64,000 nt of DNA from Methanobacteriota archaeon (GCA_020697715.1 JAEHCO010000001.1:576001-640000), one strand, 5' to 3'; shown: positions 6,902 to 46,127, counted from the stretch's first letter. Numbers and translations are program-made. Notes: generated from the sequence alone by a model not told the origin.

Positions 6902-9900
6902 TCACTCAGACACTGGATCATCAGCAGGAGCCTCTGGTGCCGCTTCTGGCTCAGGGGCTGGTTCTGGTGCTTCCTCGACAGGTGGTGCTGCATCAGGTTT
7001 ATTTCCATTCTTCATTGCCTGAAGCACGATTATGACAGCCATTATGATGATTATGATGATCCACATGAAGTCATTTCCTCCTGTGTCTTCTGCGTCATCG
7101 TCGTCATCCACGGGTGTATCGTCGTCGTCATCGTCGTCAACAACATCATCGTCATCATCATCGTCGTCGTCATCAACGATCGGTGTGTCGTCGTCAATAT
7201 CATCGATTATCCCGTCGCCATCATCATCCAAGTCCTCGGTCAGGTTCGTGTCGTACTGATCATAGCCTGGGTTGTACACATCCGGCATTCCATCAGCATC
7301 TGTGTCGATAGATGCTGCTGGATCGTTCGGGAAGGCATCATCCACATCATCCACACCATCGCCGTCTGTATCATCAACAGTTGGCTCTACAGGTGGTGGT
7401 GGCGTGTGATCGATAGCTGTCAGGAAACTGTCTGCGTGTGCGGTTCCCATTTCATTGCCAGCCAGATCCATTGCCTCTGGTCCCACAGTGAAGTTATATT
7501 CTGTGTCATATCCCAGTTCTTCGAATGATATCGTCACATACCTGTCTGTCATATCCCAATCAAAGTCAGTGACATTTACTCCCGATATGTTGAAGGCCGC
7601 TTCTACAGATGCTGTGTCCATTGCCTCGGTGAAGACGATTATGAGGTTCCAGTCCAGTGGGACATCTTCTGAATCTTCACCAGGTGCTATGACCAAGACC
7701 TCGGGTGCTGTCACATCAATGACATTCACCCATACGGTCAATGTGTCGCTGTTTCCAGCCGCATCCCATACTTCCAGCGTCACGGTGAAGTTACCGAGGT
7801 TCATGAAAGTGTGGTTCATTACAGGTCCATTCTGCACGACATCATTAGCCCCATCATTGAAGGTCCATTCGAAGGCCGTGATGCCAACATTATCAGTACT
7901 GGCCGTACCATCCAAAGTCACCTCCGTTCCCTGTGGAACTGTCTGACCATCACCATCTATCGCTACTGGTGGTGTCATGTCGATTATGGTTATGCTCACA
8001 TCATTGGAGTCTGTCAATCCAGCTCCATCTGTCACTGTCAGGGTAACATCATATACCCCTGGTTCAGCAAAGACGTAGTCAGGGCTGCTTCCCCATATTG
8101 TCTGGCTAGTTCCATTATCCATAAAGGTCCATGTGTAGTTCGTAATACCTACATTGTCGTAACTGGCTGAGCTATCGAAGGAAACCGTAGTGTCTTCATT
8201 AGCGCTCAGATCCATTCCTGCATCTGCTACTGGATTTGTCACATCCAATACGGTTATCGTCACCATGTCGGTGTCAGTGGCACCTACATTGTCGGTCACT
8301 GTCAGGGTGAAGTCATACACACCAGGATTGGCGAACATGTAATTCACGGTCTCACCAGAGAGTGTGATGGTTCCTGATCCATCTACCCAGCTCCAGGAAA
8401 CTATCTGTATATCATCCGAGGACCCACTTCCATCAAGGAGTGTGCTGGTATCTTCATTTATGGATATTGATGTTCCAGCATCTGCATTAGGTGCCAGATC
8501 GGTATAGTCCAATGAAACGATGACATCCTTGGAACTGAACATATTCGCGTTCACAGAACCTGTTGTCACGCCCTTGACCGCTTCTACTGTATGTGGTGTG
8601 AACAATTGGCTGTAAGAGTTGGTCTGTAGTGACTGGTCAGCAATTATCCATCTTCTGTAACCATCCCAGGATGACATTCCTGAGTAGACCACATTGCTGT
8701 CAGCATCCGATACTGTGATGCTCGCACCTGGTATTGCCATTCCAGTTCCCTGCTGCTGGACCTTCACGTTCATGAACCATTGGTTCAATAACCAGCTTCC
8801 AGTTCCTTGCATCGGAGTGCCATTGGCACAGGACATCCAGAAACCACCGGCGCTTGCATTGATACCAGATATATCGGTTCCCATGGTTCCAGTCGATTGC
8901 ATCAATGGTGATACATATGTGAGCACTCCACCATTACTAGATTCTATTTCGAAGTGGTCCGTGTTCCAGGTACATGAGGCAGAGAAAAATCCGTCAGTGG
9001 GACTGGCGGAAGCAGCTTGCAATGCCATTGTTATTGTGCCAGCGACATTGAACATGTCTAGACAACCAGTGAAGTCTATTCCGTCAATGTTCTTGACGTC
9101 ACCATCAATGTCTATCATGAAGGAACCGTCGGTTGTGGTGTTCCACAAGGTGAGGTTTGTCTCGACCCATTGGGTTCCAATGAGGCTTCCCCAGGTGAGA
9201 CTTTCGATATCTGTGTCCCCTCTGTCGAAGAAGGAGTTCAGTGCAGTGGCATTGGTGAATCCTCGGAGATCTAATTCATAATCACCGTTCATGTCATTGT
9301 TCAGTGTGCTGTTCTCCAACAATAGGATGACATCCTCTGCGTAGATCCCACTTCCTGCACCACAATTTCCGTCCCAATCTGCACCATTGCCTATGATGGC
9401 TGAATCTGCGATCTCGAAATTACCGTCGCCGTTACCATCAGTATCATACAAATAGACACCGTGCCAGTAATTATCATGTATGAAGCAGTTCTCGATGGTC
9501 ACATCAGCTTCTCCAACGGTCTCGATACAGATACCTGCGCCTTCATTATCATAGAACTCTCCATTCATTATGGTTGCATCAAGGGAATTCTCGGCCATTA
9601 GGGTCAAACCATTTCCATATGTAGTATAGGATGTGAAACTTCCAGTTCCACCACAATCTCCGTAATAAGCGCCGACCATAGTGTCCCCATCTGAGGTGAA
9701 GGTCAGGTTGTTGTTGGCTCCGACCACGTAGTTGCTTCCGATTCCAGCATTCTTGAAGTAATTGTTGCTGGATGTCACAACTGCATTCTCATTCTGAATA
9801 CCATAGGAATTACAATTGTAACCGATCCTCATGCCGTAGTCATAATCGGCTGTTCCATCTTCCCATACGGCTTCGATGTAGTTGTTGTTGATGTCTGCGG

Positions 9901-31437: not shown

Positions 31438-31613
31438 GTGTTTAGGAATCTCAGAGAGATGGAACATCCCCGCCCTAGATCATCAATGTGTCATTGAACC
31501 AGACGGGGTTTTCGAATAGGTAGCACTCTGTGACTGTCACTCGTAGAGATACAGAATATAGTACCCCGCCCTCCAGTTGCGTAAATGCTGTAATTCAGAC
31601 GGGGCATGTTGCA
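31438..31613 (-). repeat. Copy A of a dispersed twin-hairpin non-coding element
   Basis: Its reverse complement shares ordered blocks with 44573-44712: aacatgccccgtctga, ggagggcggggtactatattc, cgRgtgacagt, ctattcgaaa, ccccgtc, agggcgggga, ccatctctct, ctaaacac. Confidence 0.88.
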
Positions 31614-31706
31614 GGGAACATGTTGATAGTATGATGGCTCATTGTTGATTATTAATGGGTTAGATTTATAAGCACGACCAATTATCAGCCTTCAACTGAG
31701 GATATT

Positions 31707-33062
31707 ATGTCATTAACACAATGGTACCTGTTCGCCTTCGGGCTGATCTTTCTCTGGATAATAGTAGAGTATATCATCTGGAAGAGCAAGTACTATGCCA
31801 AGCTGGACAAGTACAATCTCAGTTTCTACGGTCCCTTCTTGATGTGGAGGACGAAGAAAGGCCGTGACATTATTGAAAGGGCATCGCAGAACAAGAAATT
31901 CTGCAAGTTTTATGGCAATCTCGCTATCCTCATAGTAGGTGGTGCTATGGTGTCCATGACGGCTGTCTTGGCCTGGGTGGCCACCCTGGTCGTGAAGATC
32001 CCGGATAGAGCGATCATCGAACCACACATGATGCTCGGATTGCCTGGGATAAATCCAATAATACCTCTTTGGTATGGAATTCTCGGTCTGGTCGTCGCTA
32101 TCATAATCCACGAGTTCTCACATGGTATAATGGCCCGTCATGCGGACGTGAAAGTCCTATCACTCGGCCTTACTTTCTGGATAATCCCAATGGGCGCCTT
32201 CATGGAGCCAGATGAGGAGAAGATTCTGAAGATAGATGCCAAGCACAGGACAAGGATGTTCGCTGTTGGCCCTGCATCTAATCTCATAGTCGCTGCTGTT
32301 TGTGCGATGATATTTTCCGGCTTGCTCATGGGGGCTGTTGGCCCTGCGAACAATGGTGATGGTATTGGAATTACTGGCATAGTGGCTGATTCCCCAGCCT
32401 ATGATAATCTAACTGCAGGTGCTATCATGGTGTCTTTCAATGGCACCCCAGTTCAAACTTATGGTGATTTCTCGGATCTTGTTCAGGATACCACCGCGGG
32501 ACAGAACGTGACCATCGATACCTATCACAAGGACACAGGGTCCGATTCGATCACTTTGACCATGGCCAATAGATATGATTATACAGATGAAGAAGAAGAT
32601 AATGGCACAGGATATCTGGGTGTTTCCACTCAGGACATATCCACCGACGCCTTCCATCCCTTCAAGGGGGCGGATGAGCAGGGCGGCATTATCCAATCAA
32701 TGGCCTTGTACATCACTCTGCCATTGCAGAGGATGAGCCCGGTATCGGAAGACACGAGCGTCTTCTACGAGATAACAGGTCCACTTTCATCCATCCCCGA
32801 ACCTATCTTCTGGGTCATAGCCAATTCCATCTACTGGATCTTCTGGCTGAACCTTATGGTAGGGCTTACTAATGCATTGCCAGCTGTTCCTCTGGACGGC
32901 GGATACATATTCAAGGACTGGCTCGAAGGCCTTGTAAAGAGGCTGAAACCCAATATGGAAGAGGAAAAGAGAACAAAGGCCATAGATTCGACGACCATGT
33001 TCCTGGCATTCTCCATTCTATTTCTAATACTGTGGCAGATCATCGGGCCGCGTATACTTTAG
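31707..33062 (+). CDS. Site-2 protease (M50 intramembrane metalloprotease) with PDZ domain
   Basis: HEFSH zinc motif, GAFMEPDEE, AVGPASN, a PDZ-like segment and NALPAVPLDGG. Confidence 0.92.
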   Translation: MSLTQWYLFAFGLIFLWIIVEYIIWKSKYYAKLDKYNLSFYGPFLMWRTKKGRDIIERASQNKKFCKFYGNLAILIVGGAMVSMTAVLAWVATLVVKIPDRAIIEPHMMLGLPGINPIIPLWYGILGLVVAIIIHEFSHGIMARHADVKVLSLGLTFWIIPMGAFMEPDEEKILKIDAKHRTRMFAVGPASNLIVAAVCAMIFSGLLMGAVGPANNGDGIGITGIVADSPAYDNLTAGAIMVSFNGTPVQTYGDFSDLVQDTTAGQNVTIDTYHKDTGSDSITLTMANRYDYTDEEEDNGTGYLGVSTQDISTDAFHPFKGADEQGGIIQSMALYITLPLQRMSPVSEDTSVFYEITGPLSSIPEPIFWVIANSIYWIFWLNLMVGLTNALPAVPLDGGYIFKDWLEGLVKRLKPNMEEEKRTKAIDSTTMFLAFSILFLILWQIIGPRIL

Positions 33063-33085
33063 ATATCACTATATCCGTATGTAGG

Positions 33086-36001
33086 TCATCGACTTTGATC
33101 CAGTAATGCATCACAATCCTTCATCATCTTGACCATTCCAGATCTCTCAAATATCTCTTTAGCTTCTTCAATCAGCCTACGGCCTTCTTCATTACCTTCA
33201 TCTTTCAATAATAAGATCCCATGCTCGAAAAGTGTCTTGGCAGCCTCAGCCTCCATCCCCAGTTCTCCGAAGGTACTGGCCGCTAATTCCAGGCAATCAC
33301 AGGCCTTATTTTTCTGCCCCTTTGCCGCATGGATCATGCCTTGTGCCCTGAGTCCCCATATCTCTGTTCTTTTAGATCCTATCTCCAGTGATAGGGTTAT
33401 ACCCGCCTCACAATCGGCCGCTGCTTTTTCCATCTGGCCAAGGGCAACCCTCGATGGGATCACAGCCGTTAGATTGTTCACTATCTGCTGTTTATCGCCT
33501 ATATCGCGAGCGATCTTCAATGCTTTATCATAAGCCACTATGGCCTCTTCATGCCTTTCCTGCTCGGCCAGCACATTACCGATATTGTTCAGTGATGAGG
33601 CCATTCCACTGGGGTCCCCGGTCTTCTCCATTATCCTTAGGCATTCCTCATAGTATTCCAGGGCCTTATCGAAATCCCCCATGTTCTTTCTTATGATGCC
33701 GATATTGTTCAGTGTGTAGGATTTACCCTGCAGGTCCTTGGTCTTTTCCAAAAGCTCCAGAGCCTCTTCATAATACTTCATGGCCTCAAGGAATGAGCCT
33801 TTGGCCAGATACACATTTCCAATGTTGTTGTAAGCCGCACTCAGGCCATAGAGGTCGTTCAATTCCTCTCCCATCTTCTTCCCCATATCGTGACACCTCA
33901 GGCTCTCATCATGATTTCCCATGAGCAGATGGCAGACACCCAGTATCTTCCAGGCCCGACCAGCGGTCTTCTTCGCATCTATACTGTCCACATCCTCAAG
34001 GATCTCTATACCATTCTGTGCCATGCTTATCGTATCATCAAAATGCCCTTTATTGAGATTCACGAAGGACCTGGCTATCATAAGGAATCCCATCTCATCA
34101 TGTTTTATTTCCTCCAGTAGTTCTTCGGCTTCAGTGAGCTCCGCAAGAGCATCATCGAACTGCCCGTGCATTGTCATGATATAGGCTCTTCGTCTGTGTA
34201 TACGGGCTTTTGAACCATCATCATCCGCCGCATCCAGTGCCTTTGAATAAGTTTCTAGAGAACTCTCAAACGACCCCAATAGACCTTTCATCTCCCCCAC
34301 CCTTTCCAGAAGCATGAACTCATGCTCGCGAGCGAGAGGGCCTAATTTCATTTTAGGGATCGCATCCACTGCCTTTAGATAGAATTCTGTGGCCAGATCT
34401 GGTGAGAAGGAGCTTTCTGCCTTTTCGCCAGCTAATCTGGAGTAATCAAAGCTCTTTGTATGCTCCCTTGAGTTGGAAAAGTGTCTTGCCAGTTCATATA
34501 TGACCTCATCTTGTTTAGACGCATATTCCTTCTCATACCACTCTCCGATCTCCTTGTGATAGAGCATCTTCCACCTATCTGGAAGGCTATCGTACACAAT
34601 ACTCTGGAACATGGCATGGGAAAACTGATCGATATCATTGATATTGACGAATATCCCTGCTTTACCTAGCTTTTCTATTGAGCTTCCAGGGTCCTTCAAT
34701 GAGTTGGAGGTCAATAAGACCTTTCTGTCGAACTCCTTTCCTACGCAGGAGGCGAATTCCATGAGGGCCAAAGAGCCTGTATCAAGCACTTCCAATCTGT
34801 GCTGGACCACGGCCTCTATGGTATCCGGCATTGTGATATTATCATCATCGAGATAGTATTTCCCTTCTTTCTTCACAATACTACCAGTGTCCTCAAGGGA
34901 TCTGAGGAGCTCGGATGCGAAGAAAGGATTGCCACCACTCTGCGATGATATATCTGCTAGGAAGTCTTTTGGGAATCTATTATTTGGAAAAAGAGCGAAT
35001 GCCAGATCCTCGATGTTATCTTCATTGAATTTGCCAAGGTCCAAGATATTGATCCCCCCATCATCTTTGACATCCTCCAAAGAATCCAGCACCTGCTTTC
35101 CTTCCCTGGGTCTAAGGGTGCCTAATATCATGATCTTTCGGTTTCGAATGTTCCTCGATATGTAATTCAGGACAAATATCGAGGATTCATCGGCCCATTG
35201 AAGATCCTCCAATAGTAAGATCATGCTCTTGTCATCACTAAGAGCATGAAGGGCTTCCAGCACCTCTTCCGATATCCTTGTCCTCTCTTGCTCCAGGCTT
35301 ATACCTTCCAGGCTCTTCCGAACTAGGAACTTGGACTGTGCCAGAAGTACGATCTCATCCTGGATCCCTTTGATATCCTCCGTACTGCCAGACCAATTTT
35401 CGAGTATATGACCGTATTTGCTTTCGATCCGATCCAAAGAGTTGCGGACCATGGATTTCATGTTCTCATGTTCGGAGCCAGTGAATACCGCTGTTAGGAA
35501 TAGATGGTCGCCATGTTCGATTATTATCTTCATATTGCCGTATTCTAAACGACCCAGGGTATTCTTGTTCTCTGTGCTTCTGTCGAAAGAATCTCTTACA
35601 AAATCCTGAACTGCTGAGAGCATACCCGCAAATATGTCTCCATCCAGACCTTCATCCTCAGGTGCTGCCTGCCCTACAAGTATGCCTGCTCTGTCCACTG
35701 CAAAGAGTTCGGTGAAAGACCTGTATTCATGATCTTCAAAAAGTGGTCTTTCAGCACTCTCGCCAAGAGCTCTTGAGAATATCTGGAACGGCTCAGAAGA
35801 TTCATCCAATGCAGTACCCATAAGGATGTCTGATGTATCACTTGATGAAGAAGCTAGGAACTCTCGTATAAGTGTGGTCTTTCCCAGACCGGCCTCTCCA
35901 GATATAAGTATGGTATTTCCCTTTCCCTCCAAAGCTCTTTCGAGTCCTTTTCTAAGTTCAGCCAGCTCCTTCTCCCGTCCAATAAATCCTTCCAAGCTCA
36001 T
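33086..36001 (-). CDS. STAND-class AAA ATPase (AAA_16/MalT-like) with an internal longin/roadblock-like insert and a C-terminal TPR array
   Basis: FIGREKEL, Walker A GEAGLGKT, Walker B LLLEDLQWAD, GGNPFF, FSHAM, and multiple TPRs (AYNNIGNVY...YYEEALE). Confidence 0.88.
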   Translation of the reverse strand: MSLEGFIGREKELAELRKGLERALEGKGNTILISGEAGLGKTTLIREFLASSSSDTSDILMGTALDESSEPFQIFSRALGESAERPLFEDHEYRSFTELFAVDRAGILVGQAAPEDEGLDGDIFAGMLSAVQDFVRDSFDRSTENKNTLGRLEYGNMKIIIEHGDHLFLTAVFTGSEHENMKSMVRNSLDRIESKYGHILENWSGSTEDIKGIQDEIVLLAQSKFLVRKSLEGISLEQERTRISEEVLEALHALSDDKSMILLLEDLQWADESSIFVLNYISRNIRNRKIMILGTLRPREGKQVLDSLEDVKDDGGINILDLGKFNEDNIEDLAFALFPNNRFPKDFLADISSQSGGNPFFASELLRSLEDTGSIVKKEGKYYLDDDNITMPDTIEAVVQHRLEVLDTGSLALMEFASCVGKEFDRKVLLTSNSLKDPGSSIEKLGKAGIFVNINDIDQFSHAMFQSIVYDSLPDRWKMLYHKEIGEWYEKEYASKQDEVIYELARHFSNSREHTKSFDYSRLAGEKAESSFSPDLATEFYLKAVDAIPKMKLGPLAREHEFMLLERVGEMKGLLGSFESSLETYSKALDAADDDGSKARIHRRRAYIMTMHGQFDDALAELTEAEELLEEIKHDEMGFLMIARSFVNLNKGHFDDTISMAQNGIEILEDVDSIDAKKTAGRAWKILGVCHLLMGNHDESLRCHDMGKKMGEELNDLYGLSAAYNNIGNVYLAKGSFLEAMKYYEEALELLEKTKDLQGKSYTLNNIGIIRKNMGDFDKALEYYEECLRIMEKTGDPSGMASSLNNIGNVLAEQERHEEAIVAYDKALKIARDIGDKQQIVNNLTAVIPSRVALGQMEKAAADCEAGITLSLEIGSKRTEIWGLRAQGMIHAAKGQKNKACDCLELAASTFGELGMEAEAAKTLFEHGILLLKDEGNEEGRRLIEEAKEIFERSGMVKMMKDCDALLDQSR

Positions 36002-36268
36002 TCTTTCCCTCCTATGTCATCGATGACCGCTTTTCGAACATATATGATTTATGTTATCCTTCTACGATCATGCATACTTTGGTAACCCATATATCGTGGG
36101 CGATATTAGAAGTTGATAGGCAAACCTCTGAATTGCCCGCCCTATTTAATTGTTCAACCCCCCACCCTGCGCTCCTCCGCTGACAAAACCCGTCCCCCCC
36201 TTTTGTCTGCTCGGAGCTCACTATGGCTATCACTAGTAATTAGAATATTATGATATCTCATATTCTGC

Positions 36269-36964
36269 TTAATCCGAAACTATCTCGAATCCATCCTTGT
36301 CGAATATCAGTGGTGAGTATCCTCTCTTGTGGCTGGTCTGCCTCATCTTCACAACACCAAGGAATAAGTTAACCTGGTTCCCTTCTCTTTTCAGATCAAG
36401 GTGCATGATACCATCTGACAAGAAATCCTCATCGTACTTGCAGAACTGGTCCGATCCCTGTTGCATCTCGGTAATCAAGAAGGCTGTGACGTTCATATCT
36501 CTCAGCCATTCGAAGAAATGGAATAGTTCTTCTCTCGGATGCTGGAATCTGGCCATAACCTCCAGAACAGGTAATGAATCAATTACCACGACCTTGATGT
36601 CCATGTTCTTCTTCAGGTTCTGGATGTACATCTTGAAGACTTCCATCCAGGTCTGATTGGTAAGCTGGGTGAGCTTCTTCCTAATCATTCCCAGATCAAG
36701 GACACTTATCTCTTTTTCCAGACCGCCCAGCTTCATTCCCAGGCCGTCCATATTTGTTAAAAGGCTTTCCCTGCTTTGCTCCAAAGTGACATAGACTCCA
36801 CTGACATCTTCAATATTCGCATTGTGATACAAAATATTGAAAGCCAGTGAGGATTTCATTGTTCCAGGCTTGCCTGCGATAAGTATGACACTGCCATCTG
36901 GAACGCCTCCACTCATTTCCTTGTCCAGTCCCTTGATAAAGGTCTTAACTCTATTGATCTTCAT
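36269..36964 (-). CDS. KaiC/RAD55-like single-domain RecA-superfamily ATPase
   Basis: RVKTFIKGLD...GGVP, Walker A GKPGTMKS, YVTLEQ, VVIDS, LITE, KMRQTSH. Start set at ATG 36964 after a GGAGGA SD. Confidence 0.9.
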   Translation of the reverse strand: MKINRVKTFIKGLDKEMSGGVPDGSVILIAGKPGTMKSSLAFNILYHNANIEDVSGVYVTLEQSRESLLTNMDGLGMKLGGLEKEISVLDLGMIRKKLTQLTNQTWMEVFKMYIQNLKKNMDIKVVVIDSLPVLEVMARFQHPREELFHFFEWLRDMNVTAFLITEMQQGSDQFCKYDEDFLSDGIMHLDLKREGNQVNLFLGVVKMRQTSHKRGYSPLIFDKDGFEIVSD

Positions 36965-37187
36965 TGAGCTTCCTCCGATTCGATTCCCATAGTTCACTAT
37001 AATGATAAAAGCCTATCGGTTATTGAATAAGTCAAAAGTGTCAATATGGATAATTCTGGCTGGTCATTTTGACATTATATTAGTTATCATTGTTAATATT
37101 TGAGTCATATATCCGTCTATATCTTTTTATATCATCACTTATTGTTAATCTTATAATAAGTATATAATGAACCCAGGGGCTGAATTG

Positions 37188-37463
37188 ATGGTAGATGACA
37201 ATATAATATATATCGGCAAAAAAGAAACAATGAGCTATGTTCTGGCAGTGACAGGTCAGCTCAATGGAGAAGCAGGCAAGGTGACCATCAAGGCCAGGGG
37301 TAGAAGCATAAGCAAGGCGGTCGATGTGGCCGAGATAACAAGGAACAAGGTAATTACAACGGCCGTGGTGGATGATATCAAGATATACACCGAGAACCTG
37401 GAGAACGATGACGGCAGGAAGACTAATGTGTCTTCCATCGAGATCCTTTTAAAGAAGGAATGA
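37188..37463 (+). CDS. albA: DNA/RNA-binding protein Alba
   Basis: IYIGKKETMSYVLAV...IKARGRSISKAVDVAEI...NVSSIEI. Confidence 0.95.
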   Translation: MVDDNIIYIGKKETMSYVLAVTGQLNGEAGKVTIKARGRSISKAVDVAEITRNKVITTAVVDDIKIYTENLENDDGRKTNVSSIEILLKKE

Positions 37464-37518
37464 TCAGATCAATGGATTTGAATAATATATAACATAATTG
37501 ACTAGGCTGGTGCTTCCA

Positions 37519-38790
37519 ATGACTTTGAAAACTTTTCATGATAGTGTAGAACCTTTATTGGGTCAGATAGATTTTACTTTTCTTAAGGACAATAGGATAT
37601 GTTTCACATGCCTAGGCAGGATATTTGCCAAGCTCGGGCAGGATGGGGATGAAGAAGGACTGTCCAATCAGGTAAGAGGACAGGAAATAAAGAGGATGAA
37701 GGATGTGCCCGACCCAACAGAGCCTGAGGATTGCTGGCTCTGCGAAGGCATAACCAATGATTATCCAAGATTTGCTTCAATGGCGATCGAAAAGATGAAG
37801 GAATGGGAGCATGACACATTCCTCTTAGGATCCAAGTTCGATGCCGAGATGGTGGAGAAAGAGGAATTGATATGGTCGGAGATATCCGGAGAGTTCAGCG
37901 AACCCATAAAGGCCGAGTTCAACAGAGAAGTGGGCAAGCTGGTACATATTGAAATGGGCAAAGAGCCAGAATTCAGCAAGCCAGACATCGTGGCCGTGAT
38001 AGACACCATGTACGAATCAGTGAACCTTCAAATATCTCCACTGTACATTTATGGTAGATATACAAAATCCAAAAGAGGCATACCGCAGACAAGATGGCCA
38101 TGCCGGCAATGCATGGGCAAAGGTTGCAGTAAATGTGACAATACCGGCAAGCTTTATCAGACCAGTGTGGAGGAGATCGTCGCCCAGGAGGTCATGAAGT
38201 ATTCCGGAGGAAAGGATCACAGATTCCATGGCATGGGTAGGGAAGACATTGACGCTCTCATGAAAGGAAGAGGTAGGCCCTTCGTGGTGGAGATCAAGGA
38301 GCCGATGAAAAGAGCCCTTCCATTGGATAAGATAATGGAAGCTCTGCAAGATCCCGATCTGGGAGCCTCGGCCACGGAAATGCGCCCATCTGATAATGAC
38401 GAGGTGGTTCGTATCAAGAGTGCCAGATCAGATAAACAATACATGATATCAGGCATAATTCAAGGTGACTTCTCCGAGGAAAAGCTTAAAGAAGTAGTTG
38501 CATCTCTTGGTGAGAAAACGATCGATCAAAAGACCCCCACTAGAGTGAAGCATCGAAGGGCAGATAAGATCAGGAAAAGGAAAGTGAAAACAATTTCCAT
38601 TCTTGAACTGTCTGGAGATCGGGTGGCATTTGCCATTACCGCGGAAGCCGGTACCTATATCAAGGAACTGGTCCACGGGGATGATGGCCGAACCATCCCA
38701 AGCGTCGCTGGTGAGTTGGGTGTGGAGATCAAAGTAGAAGAACTGGATGTACTGGAAATATTAGACAGTGATGATCCAGGGGCTGATTGA
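37519..38790 (+). CDS. pus10: tRNA pseudouridine(54/55) synthase Pus10
   Basis: CxxCLGR.FAKLG, GRYTK..RGIPQTRW, catalytic GREDIDA, QKTPTRV, AGTYIKELVHGDDGRT. Confidence 0.95.
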   Translation: MTLKTFHDSVEPLLGQIDFTFLKDNRICFTCLGRIFAKLGQDGDEEGLSNQVRGQEIKRMKDVPDPTEPEDCWLCEGITNDYPRFASMAIEKMKEWEHDTFLLGSKFDAEMVEKEELIWSEISGEFSEPIKAEFNREVGKLVHIEMGKEPEFSKPDIVAVIDTMYESVNLQISPLYIYGRYTKSKRGIPQTRWPCRQCMGKGCSKCDNTGKLYQTSVEEIVAQEVMKYSGGKDHRFHGMGREDIDALMKGRGRPFVVEIKEPMKRALPLDKIMEALQDPDLGASATEMRPSDNDEVVRIKSARSDKQYMISGIIQGDFSEEKLKEVVASLGEKTIDQKTPTRVKHRRADKIRKRKVKTISILELSGDRVAFAITAEAGTYIKELVHGDDGRTIPSVAGELGVEIKVEELDVLEILDSDDPGAD

Positions 38791-38791
38791 A

Positions 38792-39085
38792 ATGGTAAAA
38801 AGGTCCAGAGGAATAAGAAGTAGATCAAGAATGATCTTGCGGAAATCCGTGAGACAGAAAGGCATGCCGCCATTGACCAAGACATTCGCTAATTTTGAAG
38901 ATGGCGAGAAGGTCAATATAGTTATCGAACCAAGTGTTCATAGTGGAATGCCGCATGTTAGGTTCCAAGGTTTATGTGGAACCATAACTGGAAAGCAGGG
39001 CAATGCCTTTATCGTGACTTTGAAGCACGGCAACAAGGAAAAGCAGCTTATTGTCGGTCCAGAACACCTGAAAAAGCAGGGGTGA
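38792..39085 (+). CDS. rpl21e: 50S ribosomal protein L21e
   Basis: MVKRSRG.RSRSR...GMPHVRFQG...PEHLK. Confidence 0.95.
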   Translation: MVKRSRGIRSRSRMILRKSVRQKGMPPLTKTFANFEDGEKVNIVIEPSVHSGMPHVRFQGLCGTITGKQGNAFIVTLKHGNKEKQLIVGPEHLKKQG

Positions 39086-39089
39086 TATT

Positions 39090-39410
39090 ATTTCTGATAC
39101 ACAGTGTTTGACACTAGCAGAGGTAAAGGAGTTGCTCGAGAAAGAACAGAATGGTCGAGAGCTCAACACGGAGCAGAACTATGCTCTGACTCACGCCCTG
39201 AAGTTCGCCAAACTGGATGCGAAATCATCAAGGAAATTGGTGGAAGAGCTCCAGAAGATCGAGCCTTTATCCGAGCTTCATGCTTGTAAATTGGCAGATA
39301 TCATGCCCAAGTATCCGGATGAGGTCAGGACAATATTTGCGAAAGAAAGGTTCGTACTAGATGCGCCCCTTATCGAGCAGATATTGGAGACAATAAGGAA
39401 AAGTGAATAG
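39090..39410 (+). CDS. rpo4: RNA polymerase subunit Rpo4 (RpoF); probable ATT start at 39090 (ORF-track start TTG 39108)
   Basis: TLAEVKELL...EQ.YAL.HA.KFAKL...KLADIMP...EVRTIF; sits in the conserved rpl21e-rpo4-DUF655 gene order. Confidence 0.9.
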   Translation: MSDTQCLTLAEVKELLEKEQNGRELNTEQNYALTHALKFAKLDAKSSRKLVEELQKIEPLSELHACKLADIMPKYPDEVRTIFAKERFVLDAPLIEQILETIRKSE

Positions 39411-39423
39411 GCGGGGTATAGAG

Positions 39424-39972
39424 GTGGAAGACTACGCATTTATATTGGATCATTTACCACACGGGAGAGCCGACAAGAGGGGCTTCCGTCGTGAACCAAT
39501 AGCATATGCTGTAGGCGAGAGTGAGTTCAAACTGTTTGAACTCACACCCAAAGATAATGCTCCTTTGACAATTGGCGATAGGGTGTATATCGGCAAGAAT
39601 GCGGAGCTCAGGCACGATATATTGCATGTCAAGCGCAGGGTGAGATATGAAGATCTCACAAATGCATCCCATAGTGAATTGCCATATGTGCTTTTGCAGA
39701 TAGTGAAGGACAGAGAGGAATTCTTTGTCAAATTCTACAATGATGCAAGAGCCATCACCACACGTTTCCATATGCTGGAATTGCTCCCTGGATTGGGTAA
39801 AAAATCCATGTGGGCCATCATAGATGAGAGAAAGAAGAAACCTTTCACGTCCTTTGAAGATCTTGGTGAGCGCGTCTCATCTGTACATCACCCGGATAAG
39901 CTGATCGCCAAACGTATCGAGCAGGAGCTTTCAGAGGCAGAGCAGAAATACCACATATTTGTGGCAAAATAG
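39424..39972 (+). CDS. DUF655 family putative RNA-binding protein
   Basis: EDYAFILD...GDRVYIGK...HMLELLPGLGKK...PFTSFEDL; GTG start inferred. Confidence 0.88.
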   Translation: MEDYAFILDHLPHGRADKRGFRREPIAYAVGESEFKLFELTPKDNAPLTIGDRVYIGKNAELRHDILHVKRRVRYEDLTNASHSELPYVLLQIVKDREEFFVKFYNDARAITTRFHMLELLPGLGKKSMWAIIDERKKKPFTSFEDLGERVSSVHHPDKLIAKRIEQELSEAEQKYHIFVAK

Positions 39973-40009
39973 ATAAGATCACATTTGAAAATATAATAGA
40001 GGAATTAAC

Positions 40010-40297
40010 ATGAAAGCACTTAGTACATGTAAGGGTTGTGGCCGAAAAAGGCTGTTGAACATACTGATGTTGTGCAAGAGATGCAACAAGGACGCGGGCA
40101 AGTACGTCAGCAAGAAAGAAATGGAAAAGATCCAGGCAGATTCAGCAGCGGCATCCGCAGCAGCTTCAGAAGCCAAGGCAGCCGATGCAGAGGCAGCAGC
40201 AGCCAAGGCGGAAGATGCAGCAGCAGAGGCAGCCGAGGGCGAGGAAGGAGCAGAAGGCGAGGCTCCTGCCGAGGACGCGGCTGAAAAATCTGAGTAG
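40010..40297 (+). CDS. Small hypothetical Zn-ribbon protein with Ala/Glu-rich tail
   Basis: AGAGGA SD; CKGC-x11-CKRC basic N-terminus; acidic low-complexity tail. Confidence 0.7.
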   Translation: MKALSTCKGCGRKRLLNILMLCKRCNKDAGKYVSKKEMEKIQADSAAASAAASEAKAADAEAAAAKAEDAAAEAAEGEEGAEGEAPAEDAAEKSE

Positions 40298-40338
40298 GCA
40301 GCTTCCTATAGCCCAGCTCGTAGTTACCGAGGGATCAT

Positions 40339-40360
40339 CATCCAGCTATAATGCTGGATG
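40339..40360 (+). terminator. Hairpin after the alba-to-Zn-ribbon gene run
   Basis: catccagc-tataat-gctggatg forms a perfect 8-bp stem followed by pyrimidines. Confidence 0.45.
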
Positions 40361-40475
40361 TCTATTCCTTTCAAATTATTATATCAATATCGATCCTAAA
40401 TTTCGAACCCTTTGTGGGTGGGTATAGGGTATTCCCATCTACACCTTTATGTATAACAATTAGATACAGGCATAT

Positions 40476-43172
40476 ATGACAGACAGTCAGTGGCACTCTC
40501 TATCGGTGGAAGAAACATTCAATAAGCTTGCTTCTTCAAAGGATGGTCTTAATGAGACCGAAGTATCTGGAAGACTGGAAAAGTATGGTCCCAATGAGCT
40601 GACCATGCAAAAGGGCACATCGCCTTTGATAATTTTCCTGAATCAGTTCAAAGACCTGATGGTCATTATTTTGATCATCGCGACCATCATATCAGCAGCA
40701 CTTGGAGAATATATTGATTCTGTTGTTATTTTGATCATTCTGATCTTAAATGCCATCATCGGCTTTTCGCAAGAGTACAAAGCGGAAAAAGCAATCATGG
40801 CACTTCAAGCACTTGCCGCGCCCAATGCCACCGTCATTCGCAATGGCAAAGAGCATATAATCCCTGCAAGAGACTTGGTGGTAGGGGATGTCGTGCTTCT
40901 ACAAACAGGTTACATGGTGCCTGCAGATTGTCGTCTCATAGAGGCTATTAATCTAAAGGTGAACGAATCCTCGCTTACTGGAGAATCCAAAGCAGTTAAC
41001 AAGGATGCGAACAAGATATGTGACAAAAAGACCTTTTTGGGAGACCGACTCAATATGGTATTTAGCTCCACCACAGTGGAGTATGGACGTGGCATGGCGA
41101 TCGTCACCGCGATAGGTATGCAGACCGAGATCGGCCACATTGCGGATATGATACGCAAGGTGGAGTTCGAACAGACGCCCCTTCAGTTGAAATTAGAAAA
41201 ATTGGGAAAGCAAATCGGTGTCGCTATACTGGCATTATGCGCACTCGTATTCTTTGTTGAGATCATCCGCTCTGGTAGTGATAATGTCCTCCATGTTCTT
41301 CTTGTATCTGTGAGCCTGGCAGTAGCAGCGATCCCTGAAGGATTACCCGCTGTTGTTACCATTAGTCTAGCCATAGGCCTTCAAAGGATGTTGAAGAAAC
41401 GGGCTTTGATAAGACGATTACCTGCTGTAGAGACACTAGGTAGCACTACGGTGATATGCTCGGACAAGACTGGTACTTTGACAAAAGGTGTTATGAACAT
41501 CAGACTGATCAAAACTTTAGATAATACATATGATGTAACTGGGGAGGGATATGAGCCTGTGGGTGATTTTGCTTCTGAAGGAATTCAAATAGATCCATCA
41601 GAAGACACAGGATTAAGATCTTTGTTAACGGCAGGAGCTCTGTGTAATGATTCCAAGCTGGAGCAAGAGGATGGCCAGTGGGTGGTTCATGGAGATTCCA
41701 CTGAAGGTGCTTTCATTGTAGCTGCCAATAAAGCAGGCATAAATGGACCGGATATTGTGGAACATATGCCCCGATATGCTGAAAATCCTTTTGATTCAGA
41801 AAGAAAGCGCATGTCAACCGTGCATAAGGACGGATCTGGCAATTGCCTGGTGTACGCCAAGGGAGCGATGGATAGTATATTGCCTTGCTGTACCAGAAAG
41901 ATGGTTGGGGGATCGATCCAGCCTCTTGATGATGCCGATAGAACCCAAATAGAGGAAATGAATGCCAGTATGGCAAATAACGCCTATCGTGTATTGGCTC
42001 TAGCTTACAAAGATTCTGAGTGTATGATAGATACCAAGGATGCCGAATCCAATTTGGTCTTCATTGGTCTTGTTGGCATGATAGATGCTCCAAGGAAAGA
42101 AGCTATCCATGCGATCCAGGAATGTAAGAAAGCTGGTATCCATGTAGTGATGATAACCGGTGACCACAAGCTCACAGCTATGTCCATTGCAAAGCAGATG
42201 GGTATAGCATCCGAGGATTCTATCTCCCTCACAGGTGTCGAACTTGACAATATGTCCGATGAACAATTATATGATGTTGTGGAGAAGGTGGCGGTGTACG
42301 CCAGGGTCTCGCCAGAGCACAAGATGAAGATAATCGAAGCCTGGAAAAAACATGGCCAGATCGTCGCAATGACCGGTGATGGTGTTAATGACGCCCCCGC
42401 TCTGAAATTGGCAGATGTCGGGATCGCGATGGGGATAACAGGGACCGATGTTTCCAAAGAGGCTGCGGAAATGGTCTTGACCGATGATAACTTTGCTTCA
42501 ATAGTTGGTGCGGTGGAAGAGGGGAGAAGATGCTTCGATAATATCCGTAAATTCTTAAAATACACTTTGACATCCAACTCGGGCGAGATATGGGTGATGT
42601 TGATGGGCCCTTTCATAGGCATGCCACTGGCATTGCTTCCATTACAGATATTGTGGATAAATCTGGTGACAGATGGATTACCAGGCCTCGCTCTGGCCTT
42701 CGAGCCTACAGAGCGGGACACAATGAGCCGATCCCCATATCATCCAACAGAGGACATCATAGACAAGAGAATGAAATACCATATACTCTGGGTCGGAATA
42801 TTGATGGGAAGTATATCCCTGGGCGTTGGTTACTATGCTTGGAAGACCGCGGATCCTCTGTGGCAGACGATGATATTCACCACCCTGACTCTATCTCAGA
42901 TGGGTCATGTAATGGCAATTCGTTCCGGTCGTGAATCATTATTCACCGTAGGTGTGTTCTCTAACATGAAGCTAATAGCAGCAGTTTCATTGACCTTCGT
43001 ACTTCAATTGATGGTCATATACATGCCTTTCATGCAGGAGATATTCAAGACCATCGCTCTACCCATTGATGTCCTGATCTATTGTCTGGCTCTGAGTACG
43101 GTAGTGTTCTGGGGTGTGGAATTGGAAAAATGGATATATCGAAGAAGGGCTAGATCTTCAGAGCAGGGCTAA
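40476..43172 (+). CDS. Cation-translocating P-type ATPase (P2A, Ca2+-type)
   Basis: TGES, IPEGLP, CSDKTGT, MITGD, TGDGVNDAPAL, QILWINLVTDGLP. Confidence 0.93.
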   Translation: MTDSQWHSLSVEETFNKLASSKDGLNETEVSGRLEKYGPNELTMQKGTSPLIIFLNQFKDLMVIILIIATIISAALGEYIDSVVILIILILNAIIGFSQEYKAEKAIMALQALAAPNATVIRNGKEHIIPARDLVVGDVVLLQTGYMVPADCRLIEAINLKVNESSLTGESKAVNKDANKICDKKTFLGDRLNMVFSSTTVEYGRGMAIVTAIGMQTEIGHIADMIRKVEFEQTPLQLKLEKLGKQIGVAILALCALVFFVEIIRSGSDNVLHVLLVSVSLAVAAIPEGLPAVVTISLAIGLQRMLKKRALIRRLPAVETLGSTTVICSDKTGTLTKGVMNIRLIKTLDNTYDVTGEGYEPVGDFASEGIQIDPSEDTGLRSLLTAGALCNDSKLEQEDGQWVVHGDSTEGAFIVAANKAGINGPDIVEHMPRYAENPFDSERKRMSTVHKDGSGNCLVYAKGAMDSILPCCTRKMVGGSIQPLDDADRTQIEEMNASMANNAYRVLALAYKDSECMIDTKDAESNLVFIGLVGMIDAPRKEAIHAIQECKKAGIHVVMITGDHKLTAMSIAKQMGIASEDSISLTGVELDNMSDEQLYDVVEKVAVYARVSPEHKMKIIEAWKKHGQIVAMTGDGVNDAPALKLADVGIAMGITGTDVSKEAAEMVLTDDNFASIVGAVEEGRRCFDNIRKFLKYTLTSNSGEIWVMLMGPFIGMPLALLPLQILWINLVTDGLPGLALAFEPTERDTMSRSPYHPTEDIIDKRMKYHILWVGILMGSISLGVGYYAWKTADPLWQTMIFTTLTLSQMGHVMAIRSGRESLFTVGVFSNMKLIAAVSLTFVLQLMVIYMPFMQEIFKTIALPIDVLIYCLALSTVVFWGVELEKWIYRRRARSSEQG

Positions 43173-43272
43173 ATCAAATAACTTATATCTGATAACATTC
43201 TCCGTAGTTGCGCACATATGGAATGCACATATGCAAGTATGAGCTTCAGGTGTGTGATCAGGAGACTGAACC

Positions 43273-44553
43273 ATGCTGGACATAAAGTTGATCAGGGATA
43301 ACCCGGACATCATCAGGGCTGACCTTCGCAAGCGAAAGGATGAGGATAAATTGCAGGTTCTCGAGGACATTCTGGCGGATGATGCCAAATGGCGAGAATC
43401 AAATATCAAGGCTGATGAGCTCAAAGCCAGCCGTAATAAAATATCCAAGGAGATCGCCAGCATCAAGAAAGCTGGCGGTGATGCCTCTAAACAACTTGAC
43501 CAAATGAAGGACATCAATGATGAGATCCAAAAGCTGGATGAGGATACCAGATATTTGAAAGATTCAGTTGACAGCAAGAAAATGATCTTGCCTAACATTC
43601 TCCATGAGAGCGTGCCAGTGGGCGAGGATGATCAAAAGAATGTCGAGCTCAAGAAGTGGGGACAGCCCCCGGAATTCGATTTCGACCTGAAACCACATGC
43701 GGAATTGGCCGAAGATCTCGGTATCGCGGACTTCGACCGCGCCGGCAGGGTTTCCGGCGCGGGTTTCAATTACCTCATGGGCGACCTGGCCTATCTCGAC
43801 CTGGCCATCATAAATTTCGCAGCCGAGTTCATGATCGGTAAGGGCTACACACTTGTTGAACCGCCTTTCATGCTCAAGCGCAAACCGTACGAAGGCGTGA
43901 CCGATATGGGCGACTTTGAGGATGTGATGTACAAGATAGAGGGCGAAGACCTGTATCTCATTGCCACTTCCGAGCACCCGATGGCCGCCATGTTCCAGGG
44001 TGAGATAATGGATGAGGAAAAAATGCCCATGAAACTGGTCGGTTTCTCGCCATGCTTCAGGAAGGAGATCGGAGCACATGGCGTGGATACAAAGGGATTA
44101 TTCCGCATGCACCAGTTCAACAAGATAGAACAATTTATATTTTGCAAACCGGAAGATTCCTGGAAGTATCATGAGGAGCTCCTGGCAAACACCGAGGAAA
44201 TGTACCAATTACTTGGGATCCCATACCGCGTGGTCAATGTCTGCACCGGAGATATTGGCAACCTGGCAGCTAAAAAGTACGATATCGAGGCATGGTTCCC
44301 GAGACAAGACAAATATGGCGAGGTCGCATCATGCTCCAATTGTACAGATTACCAGGCCAGGCGACTTGGAATTAGAATGGGCAAGGTCGGCGGCAAGGAT
44401 AAGAAATCCATCCCACACACATTGAACAACACCGCACTGGCCACCTCCCGAACCATGGTGGCCATTCTGGAGAACTACCAGAACGTGGATGGTACAGTTA
44501 CCATCCCCGAGGTCTTGCGCAAGTACATGGGCGGGAAAGAGCTTATTCAATAA
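43273..44553 (+). CDS. serS: Serine--tRNA ligase
   Basis: MLDIKLIR coiled-coil arm, LIATSEH, PCFRKE, RMHQFNKIE, SCSNCTDYQARR, HTLNNT. Confidence 0.96.
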   Translation: MLDIKLIRDNPDIIRADLRKRKDEDKLQVLEDILADDAKWRESNIKADELKASRNKISKEIASIKKAGGDASKQLDQMKDINDEIQKLDEDTRYLKDSVDSKKMILPNILHESVPVGEDDQKNVELKKWGQPPEFDFDLKPHAELAEDLGIADFDRAGRVSGAGFNYLMGDLAYLDLAIINFAAEFMIGKGYTLVEPPFMLKRKPYEGVTDMGDFEDVMYKIEGEDLYLIATSEHPMAAMFQGEIMDEEKMPMKLVGFSPCFRKEIGAHGVDTKGLFRMHQFNKIEQFIFCKPEDSWKYHEELLANTEEMYQLLGIPYRVVNVCTGDIGNLAAKKYDIEAWFPRQDKYGEVASCSNCTDYQARRLGIRMGKVGGKDKKSIPHTLNNTALATSRTMVAILENYQNVDGTVTIPEVLRKYMGGKELIQ

Positions 44554-44572
44554 TCATGCAAAGCGATGATCA

Positions 44573-44712
44573 TGCGAACATGCCCCGTCTGATTGAACCG
44601 ATAGAACCAAGGAGGGCGGGGTACTATATTCAATGAGTATGCGGGTGACAGTTCTCTATTCGAAACCCCGTCCAAAGGGCGGGGAGGTCCATCTCTCTAA
44701 AATTCTAAACAC
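44573..44712 (+). repeat. Copy B of the dispersed twin-hairpin non-coding element
   Basis: Two ccccgtc...gggcgggg hairpins with the same ordered blocks as 31438-31613 (minus strand). Confidence 0.88.
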
Positions 44713-44786: not shown

Positions 44787-46127
44787 ATGCCCGTATGCCC
44801 GCTTGAATTCAGATATGGCCGAGAAGAGATGAAGAGGATTTTCGATGAAGAAGTACGTCTGCAGCTGATGCTGGATGTCGAGGCAGCTATTGCCAGGGCC
44901 CACGCGAAGGTGGGGAATATCGACAAAGAGCACGCGGACATCATCACCCAAAAGGCCAATAGCCAGATAGTGAAATTAGAGCGTGTTTGGGAGATCGAGA
45001 AGGACACCAACCACGACATAATGGCCATGGTCAAAGCACTCACGGAACAATGCGGGCCAGCAGGGGACTATGTCCATCTGGGAGCCACCTCCAATGACAT
45101 CGTGGATACGGTCACAGCGCTGCAGTTCAACAAGGCCATAGAGATGATCATCGACGATCTGATGATACTGGAGCATACGATGATCGACCTAGCGGAAGAA
45201 CACAAGCACACGGTCATGGTCGGTAGGACCCATGGCCAGTTCGCCATACCACTGACATTCGGAATGAAGATCGCGGCCTATGCCCTGGAGACACATAGGC
45301 ATCTCCAGCGTTTGGAGGAAGCCAGATCCCGGATCTGCGTCGGGAAATTGAGTGGCGCGGTGGGCACAGGAGCGGCATTGGGCGAGCATGCGAAGGATCT
45401 GCAAACTATAACCATGGAGGAACTTGGACTCGGATATGAAGAGGCCAGTCTTCAGTTAGTGGGCAGGGACAGGTATGTGGAATTTATCTCGATATTGGCA
45501 AATATCTCGGCCTCTCTAGAAAAATTCTCGGTGGAGATCAGAAATCTCCAACGCAGTGAGATAGGCGAGGTTGCCGAGGCTTTCGATAAAGCCAAACAGG
45601 TCGGTAGCTCCACCATGGCGCATAAGAAGAACCCGATCATGTGCGAGAACATCACTGGATTGGCAAGGGTCCAGCGAGCTTTCATAATTCCGACATTGGA
45701 AAATTCACCACTTTGGCATGAGCGAGATCTATCAAATTCATCTGCCGAGCGTTTTACATTGGGCCACAGCTGTGTGCTGGTGGATGACATGCTGGTGAAG
45801 ATGAACAAGGTCTTCGCCAATCTCGCGGTCTTCCCCGAGAAAATGAAAAAGAATATCGAGATGAGCAAGGGCTTGATCATGGCTGAAGCCCTGATGATGG
45901 CTCTGGTGAAGAAAGGAATAGGCCGCCAGGACGCGCATGAAGTAACTCGCCGAATATCCATGAAATGCATTGACGAGGGGCATGATATTCGAACCGGCGC
46001 GATGCAGGATGAGATCATATCCGATCTATGGACACCGGAAGAACTGGACGTCATACTGGACGCGGCCAATTACACCGGAAGGGCAGCGGAGATCGTTGAT
46101 GATGTCGCGGACATCATCAACGGATAG
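44787..46127 (+). CDS. purB: Adenylosuccinate lyase
   Basis: HDIMA, HLGATSND, GRTHGQ, SGAVG, GSSTMAHKKNP, WHERDLSNS. Confidence 0.96.
   Translation: MPVCPLEFRYGREEMKRIFDEEVRLQLMLDVEAAIARAHAKVGNIDKEHADIITQKANSQIVKLERVWEIEKDTNHDIMAMVKALTEQCGPAGDYVHLGATSNDIVDTVTALQFNKAIEMIIDDLMILEHTMIDLAEEHKHTVMVGRTHGQFAIPLTFGMKIAAYALETHRHLQRLEEARSRICVGKLSGAVGTGAALGEHAKDLQTITMEELGLGYEEASLQLVGRDRYVEFISILANISASLEKFSVEIRNLQRSEIGEVAEAFDKAKQVGSSTMAHKKNPIMCENITGLARVQRAFIIPTLENSPLWHERDLSNSSAERFTLGHSCVLVDDMLVKMNKVFANLAVFPEKMKKNIEMSKGLIMAEALMMALVKKGIGRQDAHEVTRRISMKCIDEGHDIRTGAMQDEIISDLWTPEELDVILDAANYTGRAAEIVDDVADIING

Follow-up and report, generated by a model that had tools for sequence, protein, structure and literature searches.

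What are the two look-alike, hairpin-bearing sequences that lie between genes in a 64,000-nucleotide (nt) stretch of DNA from an uncultured archaeon (GCA_020697715.1, JAEHCO010000001.1:576001–640000; hereafter the window), and why do constant stems alternate in them with variable loops? An earlier note, made from the sequence of the window, had taken the two sequences, here called copies A and B, for either a new noncoding RNA (ncRNA) or a miniature element derived from IS200/IS605 transposons. We find that copies A and B belong to a new family of dispersed repeats, of a familiar selfish-DNA kind, that is restricted to two families of one Thermoplasmata order and whose members are gained or lost between species. 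The family is very probably a mobile or once-mobile repeat and not a family of RNA genes. With less confidence, we lean towards the view that it is non-autonomous, of the PATE or REP-like kind, and that it is served in trans by a Y1 HUH transposase.

A twin-hairpin repeat gained or lost between species

Copies A and B share one layout. A CATG foot is followed by a hairpin (CCCCGTCTGA-loop-GGAGGGCGGGG), by TACTATATTC, by a GTGACAG block and by a CTATTCGAAA block, after which come a second hairpin with an identical stem and a tail ending in CTAAACAC. Reading and alignment of the two copies (mean column identity 76%) bear out the places and blocks that the earlier note had assigned to them, with slightly wider limits under a covariance model (Table 1). 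Four matches to the hairpin pattern CCCCGTC..AGGGCGGGG lie in the window, two per copy, versus none in 100 dinucleotide-preserving shuffles. The first hairpin of copy A has a constant stem of 8–9 bp and a variable loop of 25 nt, and the contrast described for the loop of the second hairpin, 25 nt in copy A versus 3 nt in copy B, is real.

Although the two look-alike copies exist, they are not a pair but two of some 42–45 copies in the window's genome (G000; uncultured Thermoplasmata, 2.12 Mb in 34 contigs, 93.8% complete). A simple regular expression finds 41 such hairpins in this genome, an iterated nhmmer profile gives 45 element matches, 33 of them near full length, and a covariance model built from 23 copies gives 42 matches. 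A partial copy lies at C11 42489–42620. Copies are also borne by three contigs of less than 700 nt, as expected since assemblies break in repeats. The element is ~150–260 nt long and consists of a ~20-nt leader, the CATG foot, hairpin 1, a middle region, hairpin 2 and a ~28-nt tail. In all 23 aligned copies the foot is kept, and hairpins 1 and 2 have the common stem CCCCGTC/GGGCGGGG on the same strand and in direct orientation. The family is otherwise modular, with several types of hairpin-1 loop, three types of middle and three types of tail in various combinations, and with terminal-only forms (leader, single hairpin and tail) at C11:758982 and C32:44986.

If the element is dispersed, does it also move? 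The closest comparison is with G003, a sister species with ~85% nucleotide identity to G000 in genes, in which 20 loci hold 26 nhmmer matches (25 elements) whose flanks were mapped onto G000. Thirteen of the 25 elements lie at sites that are occupied in G000 too, three of these being too different to align; for 11 others G000 has just 23–213 nt between the same flanking genes, and the last lies in a rearranged context. In the other direction, where G000 has its copies at C2:14542 and C28:128704, G003 has gaps of 28 and 32 nt, respectively. Both situations occur within the window: copy B is common to G000 and G003 (locus L019), and copy A, which G000 and G001 both have, is missing from G003, where an unrelated ~62-nt spacer occupies the site; G002 has other sequence there. 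Since about half of the sites differ between two congeneric species, the element moves or has moved. The gain or loss is between species, and it is at the species level only that we see it. The suspicion of mobility in the earlier note has in this respect held up: there are sites that are empty in the sister species, and positions are not all fixed.

How far does the family extend? The covariance model is positive in 18 of the 22 genomes of the order, namely in all five of family f1 (to which G000 belongs) and all 13 of f4, and in neither of the two genomes each of f2 and f3. Carriers have 1–67 copies (G000 42, G003 47, G010 67). An even sample of the class, searched with Infernal's stricter filters, which lose weak matches, yielded eight positive genomes among 101, all from f1 or f4, and no match in the other 93. 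The hairpin-1 pattern with its foot gave a similar result: 17 of 41 relatives have it (f1, 4/4 besides G000; f4, 12/13; f2, 0/2; f3, 0/2), as do none of 19 genomes in 15 other families, and a reversed-pattern control had no matches among the relatives. In f4 the architecture is kept (CATG, hairpin 1, middle hairpin, GTGACA, hairpin 2 and tail), as is the common stem in direct orientation, and everything outside the stems differs. No copy is found in viral contigs, whose 11 pattern matches are all GC-rich chance matches; in a broad contig scan, among the matches listed, there were many chance matches in GC-rich bacteria, and the true ones were of Thermoplasmata type. A non-exhaustive search of the full-text literature found no description of the family.

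Likeness to single-strand transposon ends and a candidate enzyme

The hairpins are specific to one strand. The folding energies of 33 genome copies add up to −2006 kcal/mol in the sense direction versus −1802 kcal/mol in the antisense direction, and among 100 first hairpins taken from five genomes nearly all favor the sense strand. The better sense-strand folding is due to T-G pairs in the stems (G-U in RNA); the hairpin-1 wobbles are retained in 21–22 of 23 copies. Both the need for such pairs and the better-folding strand are as the earlier note had claimed. Terminal inverted repeats are absent from the 23 copies, in which the longest inverted match averages 4.39 nt versus 4.40 nt after shuffling. 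A hidden small protein starting at the ATG of the conserved foot was considered and rejected, as the median open reading frame (ORF) is 12–26 codons and the frame is broken by length changes of 1–2 nt. Stems that are constant and asymmetric, together with a conserved foot, are what one would look for in a folded single strand recognized by its sequence, and they do not indicate a covarying RNA.

Such features recall the ends of IS200/IS605 transposons such as IS608 and ISDra2, which have subterminal hairpins that TnpA reads on one DNA strand (PMC6006769). Like these ends, our element has two like hairpins on the same strand, a short conserved foot, no inverted repeats, and irregular pairs that are strand-specific. 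In contrast, no transposase gene lies between its hairpins, cleavage tetranucleotides were not identified in the diverged flanks, and there is no evident replication-strand bias (no formal test).

Miniature relatives of these transposons have been described. The PATEs of Haloquadratum walsbyi and other haloarchaea are derived from IS200/IS605-type transposons and are defined as heterogeneous families of non-coding elements with similar near-terminal palindromes and no inverted terminal repeats; their terminal-only forms arise by deletion between the palindromes, and small repeats lodge inside the palindromes (PMC3119063). Both PATEs and our element are too short to encode a protein, lack terminal inverted repeats and have palindromes in the same orientation near their ends; both are heterogeneous and mosaic, with terminal-only forms, small repeats in palindromes and insertion differences between relatives. 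They differ in that, in our case, we found no IS605-type transposon with both such ends but one like hairpin beside an IS200-class tnpA, that the carriers lack TnpB above cut-off, and that the host belongs to Thermoplasmata, another archaeal class.

In bacteria, a second arrangement is known as the REPtron, in which a low-copy Y1 gene (RAYT, TnpA-REP) lies beside its cognate hairpin (PMC5581495, PMC6006769). Our family resembles REPs and REPINs in that a conserved tetranucleotide marks the 5′ foot of a dispersed, intergenic, GC-rich hairpin, that a Y1 gene present one to three times per genome and largely following family groupings adjoins a putative cognate hairpin, and that copy numbers vary greatly among related lineages. 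However, the foot is CATG (23/23), or CAAG beside tnpA, instead of GT[AG]G; the hairpins are direct in all aligned copies and do not form an inverted doublet as in a REPIN or BIME; copies number 1–67 and not hundreds; the Y1 protein is of the IS200 class and not a RAYT; and the host is archaeal. Classical MITEs (miniature transposable elements with inverted repeats), such as Correia/NEMIS, have terminal inverted repeats and target-site duplications. The element is likewise small, non-coding, intergenic and multi-copy, with presence and absence between relatives, but it has no inverted repeats, and no duplication was seen in nine diverged filled/empty pairs. A MITE dependent on a DDE enzyme was rejected, there being no terminal inverted repeats and no DDE_Tnp_1 or rve match in G000.

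Which enzyme might act on these hairpins? The single Y1 HUH gene of G000 belongs to the IS200 class (NF033573, 109.7 bits; cut-off 55), and its protein fails the model for RAYT (NF047646, REP-associated tyrosine transposase; 24.2 bits, cut-off 80). In the order, Y1 matches number one to three per genome. TnpB (PF07282) has no match in G000 and none above cut-off in 18 genomes of f1 and f4. Reverse transcriptase, DDE_Tnp_1 and rve were rejected as movers for want of a match in G000, and IS110 was rejected because its occurrence, in 10 of 41 relatives, is unconnected with that of the element. (G000 itself has a single match of this sort, a fragment of an IS110-family (DEDD) transposase at C26:23–223, on a contig of 502 nt.) Nor did we find an autonomous copy: the 2.4 kb between two G010 copies contain a frameshifted gene that looks like one for an ATPase, and no recognizable transposase. 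Orphan single-hairpin copies were likewise rejected as transposon ends, as their structure is leader, hairpin and tail.

The Y1 gene has a hairpin of its own. In G000, a hairpin with the element-type stem and a CAAG foot (ACAAG-CCTCGTCTGTAAGGACGGGG-TAT) lies 511 nt from tnpA. Of 19 Y1 loci examined, 12 have this motif at most 1.4 kb from the Y1 gene, and all four families are represented among them. There are 17 occurrences of the exact pattern ACAAG-CCTCGTCT..GGNCGGGG-TAT, spread over 13 of the order's 22 genomes at one or two per genome; 13 of these 17 sites, one in each of the 13 genomes, are at most 2.4 kb from a Y1 gene. The hairpin is on the same strand as tnpA and 79–96 nt behind its stop codon in f3, 381–425 nt behind tnpA with a tRNA gene in between in f2, and 343 and 955 nt behind tnpA in two f1 genomes (G001 and G003); in f4 and G000 it is upstream of tnpA on the opposite strand. 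The Y1 proteins linked to this module fall into a single clade (97/98 support), in which the branching largely agrees with the families and the G000 protein groups with an f4 member; Y1 genes of other clades are without the module. Hairpins of this type number just one or two per genome in f2 and f3 and up to 35 in f1 and f4. The cognate hairpin is on one side only of the Y1 gene, and no dispersed-type element adjoins it. With respect to the earlier suggestion that the ends of tnpA loci be compared with the element, a hairpin with the same stem does stand beside tnpA, but the remaining tnpA flanks are unlike the element.

The CAAG-foot hairpin is part of a conserved unit, at C1:17220–17400 in G000 (locus L001, about 2359–2540), that is present in one or two copies and adjoins the IS200-class tnpA and often a tRNA gene. 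The hairpin is followed by an AT-rich, TATA-like stretch and CGTGACTTGG, and then by more conserved sequence, which ends in TGTGCC and has the start of a short variable ORF. The unit is also seen in loci L271, L272, L276, L277, L280–L283 and L285–L287, and it looks either like the edge that stays fixed at an integration hotspot or like a promoter and leader that are portable. Between species, tnpA (C1:14859–18209 and L001 in G000; L044 in G003) is inverted relative to its msrA/msrB flanks, and its DNA identity is ~70%, with flanks at 88–89%, which suggests that the transposase was replaced or transferred at one hotspot.

How might the element move? The fixed T-G pairs let the stems fold on one strand only, and the folded strand, as single-stranded DNA, would be recognized and cut by a Y1 HUH transposase acting in trans. 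The likeliest enzyme would be the order's lineage of IS200-class TnpA, which is kept beside a one- or two-copy hairpin that has the same stem and a CAAG foot. That copies behind genes are in sense may reflect what transcripts tolerate or use, for example a hairpin at the 3′ end, as with bacterial REPs. Among the possibilities raised in the earlier note, the IS200/IS605-derived miniature element thus gives the best fit (direct like hairpins, no inverted repeats or ORF, site differences between species, and a hairpin by tnpA, the candidate transposase gene).

Several observations weigh against this mechanism. Some concern orientation: along a 956-kb contig the elements show no obvious pattern, strands alternating within tens of kb, and are therefore not as a strict lagging-strand rule predicts (no formal test against replication direction was made); instead, orientation follows the upstream gene. 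Others concern the flanks of tnpA. The flanks of the resident tnpA have no significant similarity to the whole element, and a profile of the left half of the element matches the tnpA-linked unit weakly (E 0.002–0.09, four loci) and one of the right half not at all. The gene after the unit differs in every genome, mostly encoding small membrane or secreted-looking proteins, and, since the hairpin lies within a larger conserved unit on the side of a tRNA gene, its proximity to tnpA could be inherited synteny or a shared hotspot. Metagenome contigs have the unit nine times, four of these being cut by the contig end on the informative side, and a Y1 gene lies within 3 kb in three of the five informative loci. 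Since f2 and f3 have both the Y1 gene and the unit without dispersed copies, these two are not sufficient, and in six carrier genomes, all 59–83% complete, no Y1 gene was seen. Still others concern the copies themselves. The best pairwise identity among G000 copies is 82% at the median and never exceeds 90.6%; the copies are old and mosaic, and no recent burst is seen. In nine aligned filled/empty pairs, the flanks are too diverged to place ends or target; the exact ends, the target tetranucleotide and any lack of duplication are unreadable because intergenic DNA of the compared species is too diverged, and a 2-nt AT overlap is possible in one of the nine. Finally, the site counts were made with crude ORF calls, and they come from two related species, so that copies common to both are non-independent.

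On balance, the odds that a Y1 transposase moves the element are about even, and the mechanism with the best support is single-strand transposition by the IS200-class TnpA of the order. REP, REPIN and PATE repeats shape genome structure and transcript ends in bacteria and haloarchaea, and the enzymes behind them, Y1 HUH transposases, serve as models of how single-stranded DNA transposes and of how transposases become domesticated; our family would extend the PATE/REP kind to an uncultured, sediment-type lineage of Thermoplasmata. The order also offers a natural comparison, with two families that have a one- or two-copy hairpin by tnpA and two in which that type of hairpin has multiplied, to 17–67 elements. 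If the enzyme link is true, the origin of a repeat family from a transposon end becomes directly testable; if it is false, the family is still a useful annotation that explains assembly breaks and many structured intergenic regions.

Transcript-level and other readings

Could the element instead act chiefly in RNA, as a module of 3′ untranslated regions (UTRs) that forms a transcript-end, stabilizing or protein-binding pair of hairpins? Such a role would be compatible with a mobile origin, and the placement of the copies speaks for it. All copies are intergenic, and most follow closely on a stop codon and are in sense. In a set of 65 copies from G000 and G003, 30 are between convergent, 27 between tandem and just eight between divergent genes; among the 27 in tandem settings, 22 have the direction of the genes (binomial p 0.0015; the two species have copies in common, which are non-independent). 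The 5′ end of the element is a median of 31–42 nt past the upstream stop codon, which is the constant neighbor across the 65 copies. That the stems fold on the sense strand also fits, as does the length of hairpin 1, which is held at 39–41 nt in 87 of 100 cases (28–29 nt in the other 13) despite varying loop sequence.

An internal loop beside the constant stem that reads CUGA in its 5′ strand and NNN-GA in its 3′ strand occurs in 37 of the 100 first hairpins (G010, 19/24; G013, 5/7; G000, 8/32; G003, 5/24; G004, 0/13), including that of copy A (31564–31604). This loop resembles a kink-turn (box C/D-like) signature, and we count these hairpins in favor of a 3′-UTR module. Kink-turns consist of a C-helix, a 3-nt bulge and tandem sheared G-A pairs and are bound by L7Ae.

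Other results count against a primary role in RNA. RNAalifold predicts just two stems from the 23 copies, of nine and seven pairs, both near-invariant in sequence, and finds no covariation (term −0.18). Since the pairs are invariant, they are uninformative on selection for structure, which does not follow, as had been supposed, from constant stems and variable loops. Compared with shuffled sequences, the variable inner part of hairpin 1 has no extra self-pairing (81 unique sequences, mean z −0.02); 14 of these 81 have z < −1.64, all from G000 or G003. The kink-turn-like signature is missing from 63 of the 100 hairpins, and from all 13 of G004. In G010, most copies are in longer, repeat-rich non-coding DNA, 18 of 23 being without a clear coding flank within 400 nt, and one copy is antisense between tandem genes. 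In addition, housekeeping genes of the sister species do without the element. We therefore regard a chiefly RNA-level element as doubtful, and a transcript-level role behind genes, in addition to mobility, as possible.

The G010 copies have unusual surroundings. In loci L158–L177, elements are flanked on both sides by GC-rich repeated units of ~20–40 nt (GGCTGGTTCCAGCC-like), and clusters of several copies span no more than a few kb. For locus L177, Tandem Repeats Finder gave no result at score 40.

It is also conceivable, though unlikely, that both ideas apply: a REPtron-like partnership built on an IS200-class Y1 protein, whose low-copy gene is for the most part inherited vertically, with a master hairpin in all four families and a twin-hairpin family seeded in two of them, the copies being retained as RNA modules of sense 3′ UTRs, some of them kink-turn-like. 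If true, this would be a second, independent domestication of a single-strand transposase and its repeats, in Archaea.

Are copies A and B, then, new small ncRNA genes, or cis-regulatory leaders of lhr and purB, as the earlier note had also proposed? Both are in sense to the next start codon, 75–101 nt upstream of it; AT-rich, TATA-like blocks flank hairpin 1; and the strand-specific G-U pairs would fit a transcript. However, copy A is missing at the lhr site of G003, genes downstream of the element are unrelated across the family, and the regular neighbor is the stop codon upstream, so that the position before lhr and purB is incidental to these two copies. The family also includes mosaics with swapped modules even at orthologous sites, as in copy B versus its G003 counterpart. 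Nor does the lack of covariation, or of loop structure beyond chance, support a new ncRNA, and no Rfam family was matched: the window at gathering scores gave two tRNAs only, copy A at E up to 5 gave nothing, and five other copies gave sub-threshold chance matches, the best being ArcZ at 26 bits versus a gathering score of 66. We consider an RNA gene or leader very unlikely.

A further possibility is that the copies are double-stranded binding sites for a chromatin or regulatory protein and that their potential to form hairpins is incidental. What the stems conserve is their sequence as well as their pairing, and the middle region has an 11-nt tandem direct repeat with co-changing units and a near-palindrome, GTGACAGTCAC. 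Yet the arms are asymmetric at the same positions, with T opposite G nearly always, which fits a folded strand and not a symmetric dimer site, and the gain and loss between species and the mosaic structure suit a mobile element better. Such sites seem very unlikely as an explanation.

We give almost no credence to a remnant or satellite of a TnpB/IscB (IS605-type) element in which the scaffold is an omega RNA and loops or flanks are guides: IS605 ends do have subterminal hairpins and an approximate length resembling the element, but the carriers have no TnpB above cut-off, viral contigs are without a copy, and the loops, which are subfamily-specific and not unique, proved not to be guide-like when 26 distinct hairpin-1 loops of G000 were compared with the genome, matches outside elements being 13–19 nt long and at chance level (E 0.001 or weaker). 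The guide-carrying RNA envisaged earlier is, accordingly, left without targets in the genome.

Coordinates, neighboring genes and minor observations

Positions of the two copies, their parts and the adjoining genes are collected in Table 1. Copy B has the typical placement, behind a co-oriented gene (serS). Copy A is in a context atypical for the family, between the divergent genes for the Lhr-type helicase, 101 nt downstream of it, and an M50 peptidase. The neighboring genes and the distances to lhr and purB agree with those first reported. The Lhr-type helicase has a region like the DNA glycosylase AlkZ near its C-terminal half.

Table 1. Copies A and B, their parts and adjoining genes, in window coordinates except where contig C11 is named
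Feature	Position	Strand	Remarks
Copy A, whole element, 187 nt	31439..31625	minus	nhmmer E 2.2e-41; covariance model 131.8 bits
Copy A on contig C11	607439-607625		covariance-model limits
Copy A, CATG foot and hairpin 1	31564..31608	minus	foot 31605-31608; hairpin 1 31564-31604
Copy A, middle region	31509..31563	minus	blocks TACTATATTC, GAGTGACAG, CTATTCGAAAA
Copy A, hairpin 2	31468..31508	minus	stem as hairpin 1; self-pairing 25-nt loop
Copy A, 3′ tail	31439..31467	minus	..CCATCTCTCTGAG..CCTAAACA; family tail type 1
Copy B, whole element, 151 nt	44562..44712	plus	nhmmer and covariance model
Copy B on contig C11	620562-620712		covariance-model limits
Copy B, CATG foot and hairpin 1	44579..44621	plus	foot 44579-44582; hairpin 1 44583-44621
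Copy B, hairpin 2	44666..44684	plus	short form, 3-nt loop
Copy B, 3′ tail	44685..44712	plus	AGGTCCATCTCTCTAAAATTCTAAACAC
Lhr-type large helicase gene (lhr), 1838 amino acids	25822..31338	minus	neighbor outside the element
Seryl-tRNA synthetase gene (serS)	43273..44553	plus	stop codon 9 nt before copy B
Adenylosuccinate lyase gene (purB)	44787..46127	plus	75 nt downstream of copy B

Some details of the copies deserve mention. The stretch from hairpin 1 to the GTGACAG block (window 31530–31560 and 44622–44655; alignment columns 85–113) contains an 11-nt tandem direct repeat whose two units change in step between copies, reading ATTCGA..TGA / ATTCGA..GTGA or CAGTGA..TG / CAGTGA..GTGA; the change is concerted, and the units are direct and not inverted. 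When copy B is compared with its G003 orthologue (L019), hairpins 1 and 2 are near-identical and the block between them (44622–44655) is swapped, which suggests recombination or gene conversion among copies.

An insert of ~55 nt with two hairpins (TTGCG..CGCAA and TAGTTCGAG..CGAACTA) lies within the hairpin-2 loop of copies of differing subtypes, namely four in G000 (C34:4755–4970, C11:68314–68554, C22:109660–109904 and one on C15) and one in G003 (locus L015). By its positions, this insert behaves like a second small repeat that targets the palindrome. Contig C15 of G000 (599 nt) is 97.5–98.7% identical to positions 7442–7977 of G003 locus L015, and a region of C2 is another version of it; the G000 bin thus probably holds a fragment of a second, G003-like population.

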